Sequence record: DRR723986_750
Length of the DNA: 52,021 nt
Reading direction: 5' to 3' (one strand)
Notes under the pieces: model-generated
Told to the model about the DNA's origin: nothing
Seen by the model: only the letters and a program-made list of their open reading frames with translations
Database searches by the model: none
Position numbers and translations under genes: made by a program
Part shown: positions 4,674-9,508 of the stretch, piece after piece
Layout of the letters: every line of letters starts with the position of its first letter
How positions within the stretch are numbered: position 1 is the stretch's first letter

Positions 4674-5345
4674 ATGGTCGAGACATCTTCCTCCCTTCTG
4701 GAGCTTGGCGGGCCGGTCGTGCTCATCCTGCTCGCGATTTCCGTTGCAGCGCTTGCAGTCATCCTCGCCAAGACCGTTCAATTCTCCACGGCCCGTGTTG
4801 GCCGTCACGGACTTGTTCGTCAGGCAGTCACGCAATGGCGAAGTGGTGAACGCACCAAAGCCGCGCAAAACCTTTTGAAGGACAGGTCCTTGTCGGGTGC
4901 ACTGGTGCGCAGCGCCATGGATGCCATCCAGATGCTGGATCAGCAGCCTCTGTCCTCTCAGGTGCGCGACATCAGGGAAGAACGACTACGTGAGGAAATT
5001 TCTGCCAGGGCTGCAGACCGTCTCTTCGGCCTCGCCAGTTGGCTGAAGGCGCTTGATCTGGTGACGCAGATTTCGCCCTTGCTCGGCCTGTTCGGCACGG
5101 TTCTCGGGATGATCGAAACGTTCCAGACCCTTCAGGAATCGGGTGCGTCCGCCAATCCTGCCACGCTTGCCGGTGGCATCTGGGTAGCGCTCCTGACAAC
5201 TGCCTGCGGCCTTGCCGTTGCAATGCCGGTATCCATTGCCGTCACCTGGTTCGAAACGAGGCTGGAAAAGGAACGGGCCGCGCTGGAAGTCCTCCTCACC
5301 GGCGTCTTCACTGCCGGTGCTTCATCATCGCAACCCTCAGCGTGA
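4674..5345 (+). CDS. exbB: MotA/TolQ/ExbB proton channel family protein
   Basis: [17 protein letters not shown] and [21 protein letters not shown] motifs. Confidence 0.9.
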
Positions 5346-7070
5346 AACCTTGAACGCCGTCAGCGAATAGACCCCAGGCTCTGCCAGTATCTCGGCCACC
5401 CGTTCGGAAGGAAGCCGTCCGAATCGAGAAGGCTGCCGCTCTGAAGGGCGGTTCCAGATTGCGAGCACGAGCGCTGTCTCGTCACTCTTGTCGCTGGCAA
5501 TCATCGTCACCGGTACCTTGAAGCGCCAGCCGCCTGCCGTCTGACTGTTCGATGCAGGCAGAAGAAACTCCCGGCCGTCATGGATCTGCCCGGCATCATC
5601 AATCAGGTACAGTTCAGGTGGCCCCTTGCCGCTGAGATCCAGTCCCGACTGTTCCGCGCTTGCAATCCGCTCGATCGGCAAGTCACGCTGAATCACTCCT
5701 GAAACAGGGGTTCCGCTGCGCACAACCGTCCGGTCCAATTCGACCAGACCGGCAGCTTCAATGCCTTCAGAAACGCCAAGGGCATCCAGCAAGGCGCATT
5801 GCCTGCGCGTCACCAGTCGGACTTCGATCTTTGCCTCGAAACCCTGATCAGCCTTGAAGCGCTGATCGAAGATAGCGAAAGGCGCTATGCCTGCGCCAAA
5901 GGCCGTAACTTCCGCGGTATCCGCACCAGCTGCAAGAACAGACATATGTGTGCATTCACCGAACTTGTAACTGGCAACATAGTCCGACACCTTTGCCAGG
6001 GGATCTATGGAAGCGACCGCGACGGGCGGCACGTTTTCTGTCAACTCCCCTTGAGGCTGCGTTGCGGGGACCGTTGAAGAGACCGAGGCATTGGGCGCTA
6101 GCTCGGGCGTTTCCGTTTCCGTGGGCTGCAGGGCAGCAACCTGTTGTTCCGCTGGCAATACCGCATCCACCTCCGCAGTAACCACCGGATCGACAGTTAC
6201 GCTGGTATCGGGTGCAACAATGCCCGGGCTTTCAACGGAAGGCTGCGTTTGTGGAACAAAGACCTCAGACACGACTTCGTTGCCAGTGGGTTCGGCAGGT
6301 GTCTGATCGACTGCGAGCGGAGCCAGAACAGGACTTTCCTGCACAGCCGAAACGATTGTCTGCGTCTCACCTGCGGCGGCAACCTCACCGATATCCGTTG
6401 CAACCGCTACCGAAGGCACCACTTCCACCGTGGCAGGGACTTCGGCACCGGAAAGAGTGACTTCAGATCCGGCAACAACGCTTGGCGCGACGGGCGTCAC
6501 AGCGACAACGGCATCCGGTATAGGCGTGGCGGCAACAACGGTGGAGGCAGTTTGCGGAACAACAGAAGGCTGAGTCACCTGAAGCTGCTCCGGTGGCGTT
6601 GCGGTGACCGGGTTTGTTTCGACAGGGCTGACTTCTAGCGCTTCAATGATAGGCGTGTCGTCGGAAAGCGATTGATCCAGAACGGTTACCGGCACGGCTT
6701 CAACCAGTGTATTGACTGGGCTTTCGGAGACCACCGGCTCAGACAATACCGGCTCCAGGATCTCCGCAGTCTCGGAATTGACAACCGTTTCCACTGGCAC
6801 AGAAGTCTCGACGGGCAAGGGAGTGTCCGGTTCGAGCGGTTGTGTGATTTCAGTTTCGACACTTGCCAGATCTTCAAATGGCAGACCACCACTTTCCAGG
6901 ATCACTTCGGTCTCGACCGGTGGCAAGGGGGCTTCTTCCGTCCAAGGCAACGCTGGCAGGCCGTAGATCAGCGCGGAAACATGCAAGGCAACCGAAACGC
7001 CCAGAACAGCCGGCCAGACATACCCCGGGATATCCCATTGCCGGTCCTGGTTATAGGCGACAACGGTCAA
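5337..7070 (-). CDS. TonB-like single-pass protein (S-x3-H TM, long P/E/V/T linker) with a non-TonB C-terminal domain paralogous to the PpkA periplasmic domain
   Basis: [17 protein letters not shown]; about 300-aa low-complexity linker; TTG start overlaps the exbD stop; C-terminus aligns by eye with the kinase C-terminus. Confidence 0.72.
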
Positions 7071-7489
7071 GGTACACCTGCCTCAACAGTCATCAGCGTC
7101 AGGCGTTTCACACCGCCAGCTTTCAATCTGTCGGCAAGTGCGGAAATGGCTTCCATTCTGGTTCGCTTGTCGACCTGAACCACCATGTGGGTTCCGTCGG
7201 ATTGCCAGGCTTCAAGAAATGAGCCCAGGTCGTCGTAAGCCAGAACTTCACCGTCGAACCAGACTGTCCCTGCCCTGTCCAGCACAAGACTGCCTTCCAG
7301 TTTGCCGCTGCCATCGTTCTGTTGCGTTTCCGCCCAGTCGAACCCTTCAGGCAAGGGTGGCCGCAGCGTTCCGGATACCAGTAGAAACAGCAGCAGCAGG
7401 AACACCACGTTGATCAATGCAAGGGAGCTGTCTGCACGCCGGTGCGGTTTCAGCTCCTGCAAATGGATCGGTTTGGTGTAGCGTTTCAT
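7067..7489 (-). CDS. exbD: Second ExbD/TolR family protein (Asn in place of TM Asp)
   Basis: LALINVVFLLLLFLLVSGTL; C-terminal VQVDKRTRM..LKAGGVKRLTLMT. Confidence 0.85.
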   Translation of the reverse strand: MKRYTKPIHLQELKPHRRADSSLALINVVFLLLLFLLVSGTLRPPLPEGFDWAETQQNDGSGKLEGSLVLDRAGTVWFDGEVLAYDDLGSFLEAWQSDGTHMVVQVDKRTRMEAISALADRLKAGGVKRLTLMTVEAGVP

Positions 7490-7528
7490 GGTTGGCCAGA
7501 ATATCCGCTGCGCCAGGTCTCTTCCCGG

Positions 7529-9508
7529 TCAGGGAACCACTTTGACCGTGGTTGCCGTTGCCCGCAAGACCGGACCATCCTGCATCAGCTTTTCGAAATA
7601 GTCTTCCGGATCGTTTTCGCGGCGCTCAGAAAGCGTCTTGGTTATGTCCGGGCCCACCATCGCAATGATCAGGCCGGTTTCTTCAGTAGACGTTTTCAAG
7701 GTCAGCGGCACAACGAAACCGGCGCCCCGGTCGTCCGTCTGCAGATATGGGGACAGATTGACCGTCTCCCCCTTGCTGTTGACGAATATAAGCCCGAGCC
7801 CGCCCGTTGATGGTTCATAACCGGAAATGCGTCCGGCCATGTTGCTGCCGTTCGGCACGACCGTCCGCTGCATGTCGAGACGCAATTCGGTCTTGGCGTT
7901 TCCCTGTGGTGTTCCTCTCAGAAAAGCTATCGCCGGACATTGCGCATCGCTCACAAGGTTGACCTGGATCTTCGCTTCAAACCCCTGAGACTGGGTGAAG
8001 TCGCTGTCGAAACTGATGAATGGCGGCGTCCTGGAAGCAAATCCCTCAATCTCTGCGGAACGGCTCGCGATCTCTATCGGTTGCAGATACATGCAATCGC
8101 CCGCCTGATAACTGCTCACGAAATTCCGGATCCGGTCTTCGGGGGTCACGTTTTCAGGCGTCTCTTGCGGATCGGTTGCCACCGGTGGCCGGGTAACGGT
8201 TTCGGTCGGTTCCGGTTTCGTGTCGACGGTCTCCTCTGGAGGCGTGGTCGGAATTGTCGGCACGGTGTTGTCCGGCGTCGTCGGCGCCTGCGTTTCCGGC
8301 GTTTGTGTTGAAGGCGACTGAAGTGCAGTTGTTTGCGTTTCAGTTGGCTGCTGGGACACTGGTTGCTGCGTTGCCGGTTGCTGGGTCGTTGGCGTCTGCG
8401 TTTGTTGTGTCACATTCGTCTGCTGCGACGGTGCGTCCGGCGCATTCGGTCGTGGCGGTGCCACAAGCACAGGTTTCTGGTCCTGCTCGGGCACGGATTG
8501 ACCGACCAGGAAATAGACACCCCCGGCACCGACACCGGCGAAACCGAGCAGCGACAAGGCGACCAGAATGCGCTTGCCCCAGTTTGCCTGAGGCGGCGGT
8601 TGATCCAGTGCGGATTGTTCCGGCGGTGGCGCAGAAGATGGCCGAATGATCGTGCGGTCCTGGTCCTGCCGCCCCATCGGAGCACCTAGCGTCCAGTCCG
8701 CAATTTCCTTCATGCTGGCCGGACGGTTTGCCGGGTCGGGCTGTAACATGGCCTCCAGCAACGGACGGAAACGATTGTCGATACCTTCCAAGGGAGGCGT
8801 CTGCCGTCGTTTGTCGACGATCTGCACCTGCGTGCCGCCCATGTCGATCTGTTTGCCGGTCAGGGCTTCTGCAATGACCAGGCCAAGCGAATAGATGTCG
8901 CTGCGTGCAGTCACCTTGGCATCGAAAATGCCGACTTGTTCTGGCGAAACATAATTGACCTTGCCTGCAAAGCCGTCACCGATAATGGTCGGCCCGCCCG
9001 TGTTTGCCCGCGAAATACCGAAATCGATGATTTTGGCCTGCGCGACATCGCCGTTCTGGAGAATGACGTTGTCCGGCGAAAGATCTCGGTGGATCACTTC
9101 CCGGTCGTGAACCGCCTGCAGGGCTTCAGCCAGACGCTTGATCAACCGCGCCACCGCCTCCGGTTCCAGCGGGCCTGATTCAAGGCGTGTGCTCAATGAC
9201 GGGCCACTGACGAACTCCATCGCCAGGTAATAAATCCCGAGCGTAGGTTCCTTCGCGAACACGTAGTACTGGGTCAGTGCGTCGTGTTTGAGTTTGCGAA
9301 GGATCTTTGCTTCCCGCTTGAACAGATCCAGGATCATCGGGTCGCGCGAGAAGGTCGCGAGAAGGACCTTTACGGCAACCGGATCCCCGCTTTCCACGTC
9401 CCTTGCCTTGTAAACCGTCCCGATACCGCCATCGGCAATATGTTCTTCAATCTCATAGAGATTGTTGAGCCGGGTTCCGGCTGGTAGCAGGTGGGCACCA
9501 ACGTTCAT
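7529..9508 (-). CDS. ppkA: T6SS-associated Hanks-type Ser/Thr kinase, single TM, periplasmic C-terminal domain
   Basis: GGIGTVY, VAVK, HRDLSPDN, DFG, SPE and DIYSLG motifs; TM ILVALSLLGFAGVGAGGVYFL; coupled to pppA/tagF. Confidence 0.9.
   Translation of the reverse strand: MNVGAHLLPAGTRLNNLYEIEEHIADGGIGTVYKARDVESGDPVAVKVLLATFSRDPMILDLFKREAKILRKLKHDALTQYYVFAKEPTLGIYYLAMEFVSGPSLSTRLESGPLEPEAVARLIKRLAEALQAVHDREVIHRDLSPDNVILQNGDVAQAKIIDFGISRANTGGPTIIGDGFAGKVNYVSPEQVGIFDAKVTARSDIYSLGLVIAEALTGKQIDMGGTQVQIVDKRRQTPPLEGIDNRFRPLLEAMLQPDPANRPASMKEIADWTLGAPMGRQDQDRTIIRPSSAPPPEQSALDQPPPQANWGKRILVALSLLGFAGVGAGGVYFLVGQSVPEQDQKPVLVAPPRPNAPDAPSQQTNVTQQTQTPTTQQPATQQPVSQQPTETQTTALQSPSTQTPETQAPTTPDNTVPTIPTTPPEETVDTKPEPTETVTRPPVATDPQETPENVTPEDRIRNFVSSYQAGDCMYLQPIEIASRSAEIEGFASRTPPFISFDSDFTQSQGFEAKIQVNLVSDAQCPAIAFLRGTPQGNAKTELRLDMQRTVVPNGSNMAGRISGYEPSTGGLGLIFVNSKGETVNLSPYLQTDDRGAGFVVPLTLKTSTEETGLIIAMVGPDITKTLSERRENDPEDYFEKLMQDGPVLRATATTVKVVP

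Follow-up and report, generated by a model that had tools for sequence, protein, structure and literature searches.

What activates PpkA in alphaproteobacterial T6SSs without TagQRST is an open question, and according to Lin et al. (2014), Agrobacterium tumefaciens has no TagQRST and its phosphorylation pathway responds to a signal that is not known. The window, that is, the whole stretch of 52,021 nucleotides analysed here (sequence record DRR723986_750), encodes next to ppkA a 577-aa TonB/TolA-like protein, hereafter T577, whose gene set is a concrete and genetically compact candidate for such an input. The features of the two proteins and of the adjoining T6SS genes are as follows:

5337..7070, minus strand: T577, TonB/TolA-like protein of 577 aa with a short cytoplasmic N-terminus, a single TM helix, a long linker and a PpkA-type C-terminal domain
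6957..7022, minus strand: TM helix of T577 (residues 17-38), containing S26-x3-H30 (SVALH, nt 6981-6995)
6009..6956, minus strand: low-complexity periplasmic linker of T577, ~313 aa (V 19%, P 14%, E 12%, T 12%, A 11%)
5340..6008, minus strand: C-terminal domain of T577 (residues 355-577), a two-Cys alpha/beta lobe and an Ig-like beta-sandwich lobe
7529..9508, minus strand: PpkA-type Ser/Thr kinase of 659 aa; kinase domain at residues 18-266 (Pkinase, E 5e-41), then a P/T/Q-rich linker and the C-terminal domain
8501-8569, minus strand: TM helix of PpkA (residues 314-336)
7532..8146, minus strand: periplasmic C-terminal domain of PpkA, homologous to that of T577
9508..21894, minus strand: PppA (PP2C), TagF, TssM, TssL (with an OmpA domain), TssK, Fha, DUF6931 and VgrG, on the same strand as ppkA and upstream of it

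The 659-aa protein is a PpkA/TagE: it has a kinase domain, a TM helix and a periplasmic C-terminus, and PppA and Fha are encoded in its T6SS cluster. T577 lacks a kinase domain, which rules it out as a PpkA; the common part is the C-terminal domain of about 200 aa only. The original prediction held that both proteins end in the same periplasmic domain, and the pairwise alignment that it proposed is significant. Domain against domain, BLASTP (5340-6008 versus 7532-8146) gave 74.3 bits and an E of 4e-21, with 55/184 identical positions (30%), whereas 200 shuffles of the kinase domain averaged 14.2 bits and never exceeded 23.9 bits. The peptide strings on which the claim was based are present in both translations, and its two conserved Cys are invariant in a 54-sequence alignment of the domain, as are G21, Q74 and G108 (motifs G-x-C and Q-C). 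Alignments of the whole proteins (E 9e-18 and 2e-17) include a contribution from the long biased linkers of both, as would be expected if the similarity were a chance or low-complexity effect between two Pro/Thr-rich proteins. The score does not change, however, when the linkers are removed, 254 representative proteins or clusters match the domain in a library search, and its AF2 model is confident (pLDDT 92.6 and pTM 0.89 for T577), so that the probability of an artefact is negligible.

The domain thus defined is an unnamed periplasmic family of 254 representative clusters, and no Pfam or NCBIfam model spans it. DUF4384, a lead from the atlas (score 0.88), was not borne out, since 0/54 domain homologues match at E ≤ 1. 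Sequence searches of the PDB gave nothing useful, Foldseek against the PDB gave nothing at E ≤ 1e-3, and the matches listed by a wide VIA-align search with the model were common sandwich and small alpha/beta folds only (top Z 7.6, none at or above 8). For lobe 1, they include small alpha/beta modules, EscJ and DolP for example, at a middling Z of 6.5-7.0. As modelled, both lobes are common folds that are uninformative on the ligand.

In Hyphomicrobiales, the domain is the usual periplasmic C-terminus of T6SS-linked PpkA kinases. Of 42 related loci with the domain, 37 have a kinase domain adjoining it, 36 have PppA and 30 have TssM. Both copies of the domain are found in all 37 sampled Stappiaceae genomes with an orthologous TssK (at least 81% identity), genomes that are related and do not count as independent samples, whereas 0/27 genomes having distant TssK types only carry the domain. 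In a class-level search with profile A2, 1/401 genomes matched, namely the genome nearest to the window; this count carries little weight, as at most 4 candidates were scored per genome.

At its other end, T577 has the layout of a TonB or TolA protein. An S-x3-H motif in a single N-terminal TM helix is the signature known from work on E. coli TonB and TolA. In T577, SVALH was correctly placed in such a helix: it occupies residues 26-30 of the sole hydrophobic helix (17-38). Among the T-type proteins of 10 loci, 8 have the full motif and all 10 its His. The long linker that had been claimed is there too, and those of the relatives measure 250-512 aa, are A/P/V/T-rich and contain 10-21% Pro. As in TonB, a long periplasmic spacer follows the anchor and exbB and exbD are neighbours, but the T577 spacer has no Glu-Pro/Lys-Pro repeat and a 220-aa two-lobed head common with the kinase stands in place of TonB_C. 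T577 has zero Pfam (E ≤ 1) or NCBIfam matches, and PF03544 (TonB_C) is found neither in it nor in any of the 54 domain homologues, while the same profile detects the canonical TonB of the nearest genome (E 7.4e-21). The C-terminus is thus not an ordinary TonB_C by profile; TonB is absent from the 50 matches listed by VIA for the T577 domain model, a result compatible with a TonB_C likeness at fold level. The anchor helix is also of the TolA type and an envelope-spanning, TolA-like role is plausible, although the head differs. The linker of TolA is a helical Ala/Lys/Glu domain, which that of T577 does not resemble. Identical 577-aa records from Labrenzia/Roseibium are annotated as 'hypothetical protein'.

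The TonB-like layout goes together with a set of motor genes, composed of unk143, ExbB, an Asp-type ExbD, usually an Asn-type ExbD, and the T577-like protein. In the window, the remaining members and a recurrent neighbour are:

4674..5345, plus strand: ExbB/TolQ-family stator protein (PF01618, E 9.8e-27), convergent with T577 with a 9-nt overlap
7067..7489, minus strand: Asn-type ExbD paralogue (LINVVF; PF02472, E 1.5e-10), in which Asn replaces the TM Asp
3111..3536, minus strand: Asp-type ExbD (LIDVIF; PF02472, E 5.8e-16), encoded apart from the other genes of the set here
4207..4638, plus strand: unk143, secreted protein of 143 aa, with a signal peptide and a beta-sandwich with 4 invariant Cys; first gene of the motor set
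3682..4140, plus strand: DUF1036 protein, recurrent neighbour of this T6SS type and the motor set

The Asp in the TM helix of ExbD is protonatable, and some Ton systems also have two exbD paralogues. The original prediction coupled T577 to exbD within the ppkA operon. The gene order agrees with this: exbD follows ppkA after a 39-nt gap, all three genes are on one strand, and the exbD stop overlaps the T577 start by 4 nt as TTGA, indicative of translational coupling. The ExbD concerned, however, carries Asn instead of Asp. As for exbB, it lies on the opposite strand and so is not in the ppkA operon. A scan of 2900-10400 for promoters and terminators gave nothing that exceeds shuffles. RNA-library contigs from 4 studies span the same interval, mostly at 95-99% likeness, and, being contigs, cannot show transcription, strand or operon structure. 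One such contig of 5.1 kb runs from exbB to pppA, which is no proof of operon structure.

Linkage of the set is conserved. Each of the 10 loci examined has unk143, ExbB and one or more ExbDs no further than 5 kb from the T gene, and in all 7 loci having two ExbDs the Asn-type exbD is directly upstream of the T gene. In half of the loci (L054, L046, L026, L061 and L063), found in Mesorhizobium and other lineages, the set is a contiguous exbB-exbD-exbD-TonB-like operon. Coupling of T577 to ExbB/ExbD is well supported by this linkage, and T577 is likely an ExbBD-coupled TonB-like protein. The window ExbB scores best against the TolQ model, its TolQ/ExbB NCBIfam matches all being under the curated cut-offs. 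Its counterpart in the nearest genome is one of 5 MotA/ExbB genes there, and that genome also has a separate canonical ExbB-TonB locus, which makes the T577 motor an extra system.

An extra motor could serve a Ton- or Tol-like envelope system of its own, for uptake or maintenance, with a domain borrowed from the kinase, a T6SS neighbourhood due to descent or hitch-hiking, and no role in secretion. Several loci fit such independence: genome G111 (L058) keeps the motor set intact with no kinase copy of the domain and no TssK detected at E ≤ 1e-20, the set of L026 lies ~16-25 kb from the ppkA locus (L024) of the same contig, and the Roseibium exbB is grouped with unk143 and DUF1036 in a separate transcription unit on the opposite strand. 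Yet T6SS genes are within the same locus region at 8 of the 10 loci with the set, the Roseibium exbD and T577 come directly after ppkA, the 37/37 co-occurrence is with a single T6SS subtype, and no TonB-dependent receptor or TolB/Pal set, in which the locus differs from Ton and Tol systems, was found among the 41 window ORFs scanned. We consider an independent system quite unlikely.

T-type head domains do not form one clade (AU p 1.9e-6), and in 5 of the 8 genomes having both proteins the T head groups with the kinase head of its own genome. As judged from the sequences, the best explanation is that kinase domains gave rise to the T577-type head, or were exchanged with it, on several occasions. 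Such repeated re-derivation or exchange makes it most likely that the two heads share a periplasmic partner or recognise one another. A prediction of the T577-PpkA head complex scored 0.00, computed without supplied alignments, and speaks neither for nor against binding.

The motor set is found within 10 kb of a domain-bearing ppkA in only 5 of the 42 related loci, and the annotated T6SS of the Mesorhizobium ciceri plasmid does not have it; PpkA with the domain therefore generally works without the set, which, like the motor set kept by G111, tempers the idea of a T577 input to PpkA. These counts also bear on a structural reading, in which the domain binds peptidoglycan or an outer-membrane component and T577 with ExbB/ExbD forms a Tol-Pal-like link that seats or positions a T6SS without a recognisable TssJ, PpkA using the same anchoring module with no information passed. 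The TssJ profile PF12790 has 0 matches in the nearest genome (99% complete), and cell-wall proteins are numerous around the locus (the OmpA-domain TssL, an OmpA protein, an M23 peptidase and caspases with PG_binding_1). The OmpA protein (22115-22960) scores 68 bits against the Pal model, under the cut-off of 125. The Ig-like sandwich of lobe 2 and the EscJ and DolP likeness of lobe 1 would suit an anchor, but these fold matches are generic. TssW of Acidovorax citrulli is reported to be an outer-membrane anchor acting with PpkA (PMC12607579). By that description it differs from T577, an inner-membrane TonB-like protein with a motor; the proposed likeness is that a membrane accessory protein and PpkA, with Fha, set the place and time of T6SS assembly. 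As 37 of the 42 loci sharing this kinase domain and type of T6SS have no motor set within 10 kb, the set is not a general structural part, and the repeated matching of T heads to kinase heads is not expected for a generic anchor. We regard this tether as unlikely.

In the reading that we prefer, a dedicated ExbB-ExbD motor feeds the PpkA switch and has T577 as its TonB/TolA-like output subunit; we give this explanation as a whole an even chance. The motor would be genetically attached to the PpkA/PppA/TagF/Fha-regulated T6SS of Hyphomicrobiales. T577 would engage the ExbB/ExbD stator through its S-x3-H helix and cross the periplasm with its long linker, and a paralogue of the PpkA sensor domain would replace TonB_C as the head. 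The state of the motor, reflecting proton motive force and envelope integrity, might in this way reach the switch by threonine phosphorylation on which T6SS assembly depends. The original interpretation is partly supported, by the homology, the TonB/TolA-type anchor and the ExbB/ExbD linkage. For the step in which T577 acts on PpkA signalling, whether by touching PpkA or by sharing a ligand with it, and so affects secretion, we remain tentative and put it somewhat below an even chance.

The TagQRST-PpkA-Fha-PppA pathway of the Pseudomonas aeruginosa H1-T6SS is one of the close comparisons: an envelope accessory set stands beside ppkA in both, PpkA, PppA, Fha and TagF are all in this window, and TagQRST could act via the periplasmic domain of the kinase, the same idea as for the T577 set. 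TagR carries an FGE-sulfatase domain. That TagQRST is not seen here was borne out for TagR: in the nearest genome the PF03781 matches are at 0.44 and 2.16 Mb, as against 5.93 Mb for the T6SS, and Pfam detects the domain in none of the 41 window ORFs scanned. In this locus the candidate input is instead an ExbB/ExbD motor and a TonB-like arm with a paralogue of the sensor domain. In the texts of open-access papers and preprints, we found nothing that connects PpkA or a T6SS cluster with ExbB/ExbD or with any TonB-like protein, and the words ExbB, ExbD, TonB, MotA and 'proton motive' are absent from the main text of a 2026 review of T6SS accessory factors (PMC13584744). T577, with its non-TonB head, joins a growing set of ExbB/MotA-type motors with new uses.

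In a more specific and doubtful version, a proton-driven ExbB-ExbD/ExbD' motor of many Hyphomicrobiales and its TonB-like arm would be the missing upstream input of the T6SS switch. The recurrently re-copied PpkA-type head would pull on, or compete for, the periplasmic partner of the kinase, possibly unk143, so that the kinase would be activated, and the system would fire, when the envelope is damaged or proton motive force falls. The AF2 model of unk143 has a pLDDT of 84.7 and its closest solved fold is IrmA (E 9.2e-4). The DUF1036 protein is present in 6 of the 42 related loci, and in L059, L061 and L063.

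The original prediction held that T577, a 577-aa TonB/TolA-like protein, and the T6SS Ser/Thr kinase PpkA end in the same domain. Whole-protein BLASTP bears this out (E 9e-18 and 2e-17), as does the proposed pairwise alignment of the C-terminal domains freed of their biased linkers, which gave 74.3 bits (E 4e-21, 55/184 identical residues) versus a mean of 14.2 and a maximum of 23.9 bits in 200 shuffled controls. The genes are arranged in the window as follows.

3111-3536, minus strand: second exbD (Asp type)
3682-4140, plus strand: DUF1036 protein, in one plus-strand unit with unk143 and ExbB
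4207-4638, plus strand: unk143, secreted protein of 143 aa, same unit as DUF1036 and ExbB
4674-5345, plus strand: ExbB, convergent with T577 (9-nt overlap)
5337-7070, minus strand: T577, last of the minus-strand T6SS run, directly after an exbD homologue
7067-7489, minus strand: exbD homologue (Asn type), after PpkA and before T577
7529-9508, minus strand: PpkA-type Ser/Thr kinase, following the PP2C phosphatase gene
minus-strand T6SS operon, in order: VgrG, DUF6931, Fha, TssK, TssL (OmpA domain), TssM, TagF, PP2C, PpkA-type kinase
23056-34497, plus strand: TssA, TssB, TssC, Hcp, TssE, TssF, TssG, ClpV

The S-x3-H anchor motif ascribed to T577 (SVALH) lies at residues 26-30, within the only TM helix of the protein, and the coupling to exbD is seen in a TTGA overlap between the stop of the 7067-7489 gene and the start of T577. 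Identical 577-aa proteins are recorded as "hypothetical protein" for Labrenzia sp. 5N and Roseibium spp., which assigns the window to a Roseibium/Labrenzia genome.

T577 (P0001) had no Pfam match at E <= 1, the domain falls outside all Pfam and NCBIfam models, and no family was common to more than one of 54 domain homologues. Searching 1.84 billion representative proteins returned 254 at E <= 1e-3 and 31 at E <= 1e-30. In the 54-sequence alignment the two predicted conserved cysteines, C23 and C75, are invariant and are therefore family features; G21, Q74 and G108 are invariant as well. The full 227-aa domain matches mainly Roseibium-like proteins. Its first ~105 aa, the two-Cys lobe, are widespread and in some proteins repeated 3 to 6 times; among 90 proteins with this lobe, a protein kinase domain occurs in 30, IcmF_C in one and TIR_2 in one, the others having no Pfam domain. 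The metagenomic proteins P0089 (1874 aa), P0092, P0093 and P0192 contain 3 to 6 tandem copies of the domain, and the first three have no kinase domain besides them. The AF2 model of the domain (pLDDT 92.6, pTM 0.89) predicts an alpha-beta-beta-alpha-beta-alpha lobe (~residues 1-85) followed by a beta-sandwich (~90-227). Foldseek returned nothing at E <= 1e-3 with this model. Among the matches listed by VIA-align, those of the sandwich are macroglobulin, filamin and Ig-like domains (the best has Z 7.6 with an rmsd of 3.0 over 93 residues) and those of the first lobe are CzrB, EscJ and DolP-like modules (Z 6.5-7.0); all are common folds, uninformative on a ligand.

A pattern search with one genome per species yielded 42 loci, from Xanthobacteraceae, Bradyrhizobium, Tardiphaga, Methylobacterium, Mesorhizobium, Lichenifustis and uncultured Hyphomicrobiales. 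By tblastn with the window proteins, a kinase domain lies just upstream of the shared domain in 37 of them, PppA is present in 36 and TssM in 30, and 19 have a caspase-domain gene near the ppkA locus. Judged by this gene content, the domain is the usual periplasmic end of the PpkA that closes Fha-TssK-TssL-TssM-TagF-PppA-PpkA operons in Hyphomicrobiales. In a sample of the order it occurs in 33/401 genomes and 18/149 genera. It is also present in T6SS kinases encoded on plasmids of Mesorhizobium ciceri and Phyllobacterium, annotated only as "serine/threonine-protein kinase", and one Xanthobacteraceae contig (L025, 2980-7134) has two tandem PpkA-type kinases that both carry it at the C-terminus.

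Non-kinase proteins ending in the shared domain (T-type) were compared in 10 loci: the window, L059 (another Stappiaceae genus), L058 (genome G111), L054 and L046 (two Mesorhizobium species), L026 and L038 (uncultured Alphaproteobacteria MAGs), L056 (Lichenifustis), and L061 and L063 (two further families). All ten share one build, with a short N-terminus, one TM helix, an A/P/V/T-rich linker of 250-512 aa and the domain; S-x3-H is present in eight and its His in all. ExbB, at least one ExbD and an unk143 homologue lie within 5 kb of the T gene at every locus, and the unlabelled small ORFs tested near T genes were all ExbD by Pfam (5/5). L054, L046, L061 and L063 carry unk143-ExbB-ExbD-ExbD-T in this order on a single strand, with minimal gaps between the genes, and L026 has unk143-ExbB-ExbD-T with a single ExbD. 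This one-strand order in other lineages argues that the split layout of the window is a Stappiaceae rearrangement of a single operon. The Lichenifustis locus has a gene for Tox-MPTase3 (metallopeptidase toxin 3; L056 11235-11789, plus strand) between the T-type gene and unk143-ExbB-ExbD. The nearest genome has five MotA/ExbB-family genes and, elsewhere (1.77 Mb), a canonical ExbB-TonB locus; the T6SS-linked set is thus an additional system.

The membrane Asp of ExbD carries the proton. In all seven loci that encode a pair of ExbDs, the copy immediately upstream of T has Asn at this position (INV/INI/VNI). Its partner keeps Asp (IDV/VDV) in the six genes with the TM helix captured, the ORF call of the L059 partner having missed that helix. 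The single ExbD of the other three loci is of Asp type. This pattern suggests that Asp-type and Asn-type ExbDs may form a heterodimeric, obligate pair. The unk143 protein, always encoded first in the ExbB/ExbD/T set, has a signal peptide and four invariant Cys but no Pfam family; its AF2 model is a beta-sandwich (pLDDT 84.7), with IrmA as nearest solved fold (E 9.2e-4, TM 0.53/0.62). We consider it a candidate periplasmic partner of the shared domain.

In a maximum-likelihood tree of 32 C-terminal domains, or heads (10 T-type and 22 kinase-type), four changes of type were required. In Stappiaceae, the two kinds of head cluster in a single clade (98/99), T_L038 and T_L056 group with the L038 kinase head (99/98), T_L026 lies among kinase heads of Xanthobacteraceae-like type, one of them from the same contig, and T_L054, T_L046, T_L061 and T_L063 group with the kinase head of the genome holding L063 (92/92). 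An AU test chosen after the tree was seen rejected a single T clade (delta lnL 64.1, p 1.9e-6), with four long branches flagged and one row of odd composition. Both heads fall in one clade in 5 of the 8 genomes having both proteins, and together with the tree this implies that the TonB-like arm took its head from kinase genes on more than one occasion, or swapped heads with them. In our reading, the two heads are under pressure to remain a matched pair, which fits a shared partner or mutual contact without proving either.

Among 121 Stappiaceae genomes, 38 have the domain, and in 37 of these T-type and kinase-type copies lie ~2-2.6 kb apart on one strand. Orthologous TssK (at least 81% identity) occurs in exactly these 37; the domain is absent from 27 genomes with only distant TssK types (<=35% identity). 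As the sampled relatives are non-independent, this co-occurrence is tight linkage within one lineage and not a statistic. T6SS genes share the fetched locus with the motor set (unk143, ExbB, ExbD and T) in 8/10 loci, and in L063 the set lies between DUF1036 and OmpA-Fha-DUF6931-VgrG. The architecture, homology and gene linkage of T577 are direct observations. Against strict dependence, the motor set was within 10 kb in only 5 of the 42 pattern-found loci, and Roseibium genome G111 retains the Roseibium layout of ExbD-T, ExbB-unk143 and the second ExbD (L058 7884-12669) with no kinase copy of the domain found and no TssK at E <= 1e-20. The annotated plasmid cluster of M. ciceri has PP2C, kinase, DUF1036, M23, OmpA and caspase genes and no ExbB, ExbD or T genes. 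Set beside the Stappiaceae linkage, an otherwise unrelated envelope system that merely borrowed the domain seems quite improbable.

TonB and TolA dock to their stator through the S-x3-H helix, have an arm driven by proton flow, and use the head to engage a partner in the periplasm or outer membrane. By analogy, the T577 helix would dock to the ExbB/ExbD stator and proton flow would power conformational changes of the arm. The T577 head, which is a paralogue of the PpkA sensor, would engage a partner in one of these two compartments; energisation and binding, like any influence on secretion, are inferred. The TssJ profile PF12790 matched nothing in the nearest genome (G001, 99% complete), although every other core T6SS gene is present in the window. 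This would suit a Tol-like tether serving a T6SS in which TssJ is not detectable, a role we hold possible but unlikely. In the simplest model, the motor state would be relayed to PpkA through a common partner or head-to-head contact, filling the place held by TagQRST in Pseudomonas. TagQRST had not been seen at first reading, and indeed no TagR-like gene was found near the T6SS. Lin et al. (2014) describe A. tumefaciens as devoid of TagQRST and its activating signal as unknown. In open-access full text, no publication was found that connects PpkA or a T6SS cluster with ExbB/ExbD or with a TonB-like protein, and the words ExbB, ExbD, TonB, MotA and "proton motive" are all absent from the main text of a 2026 review of T6SS accessory factors (PMC13584744). 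What we regard as new here is a TonB/TolA-type transducer bearing a new head and attached to the T6SS phosphorylation switch.

Three caspase-domain (Peptidase_C14) proteins flank the T6SS (1416-2981, plus strand; 39867-41492 and 41831-44548, minus strand), two with PG_binding_1 and one with Sel1 repeats. DUF1036 (3682-4140, plus strand) and a large M23 peptidase (34993-36978, minus strand) are recurrent neighbours of this T6SS type, as in L054 (14279-17299) and L060; their genes are apart in the window and adjoin each other in Mesorhizobium. The minus strand at 37091-39028, just past the T6SS and the gene for the M23 peptidase, encodes a fusion of a CHASE2 sensor with an adenylate/guanylate cyclase.
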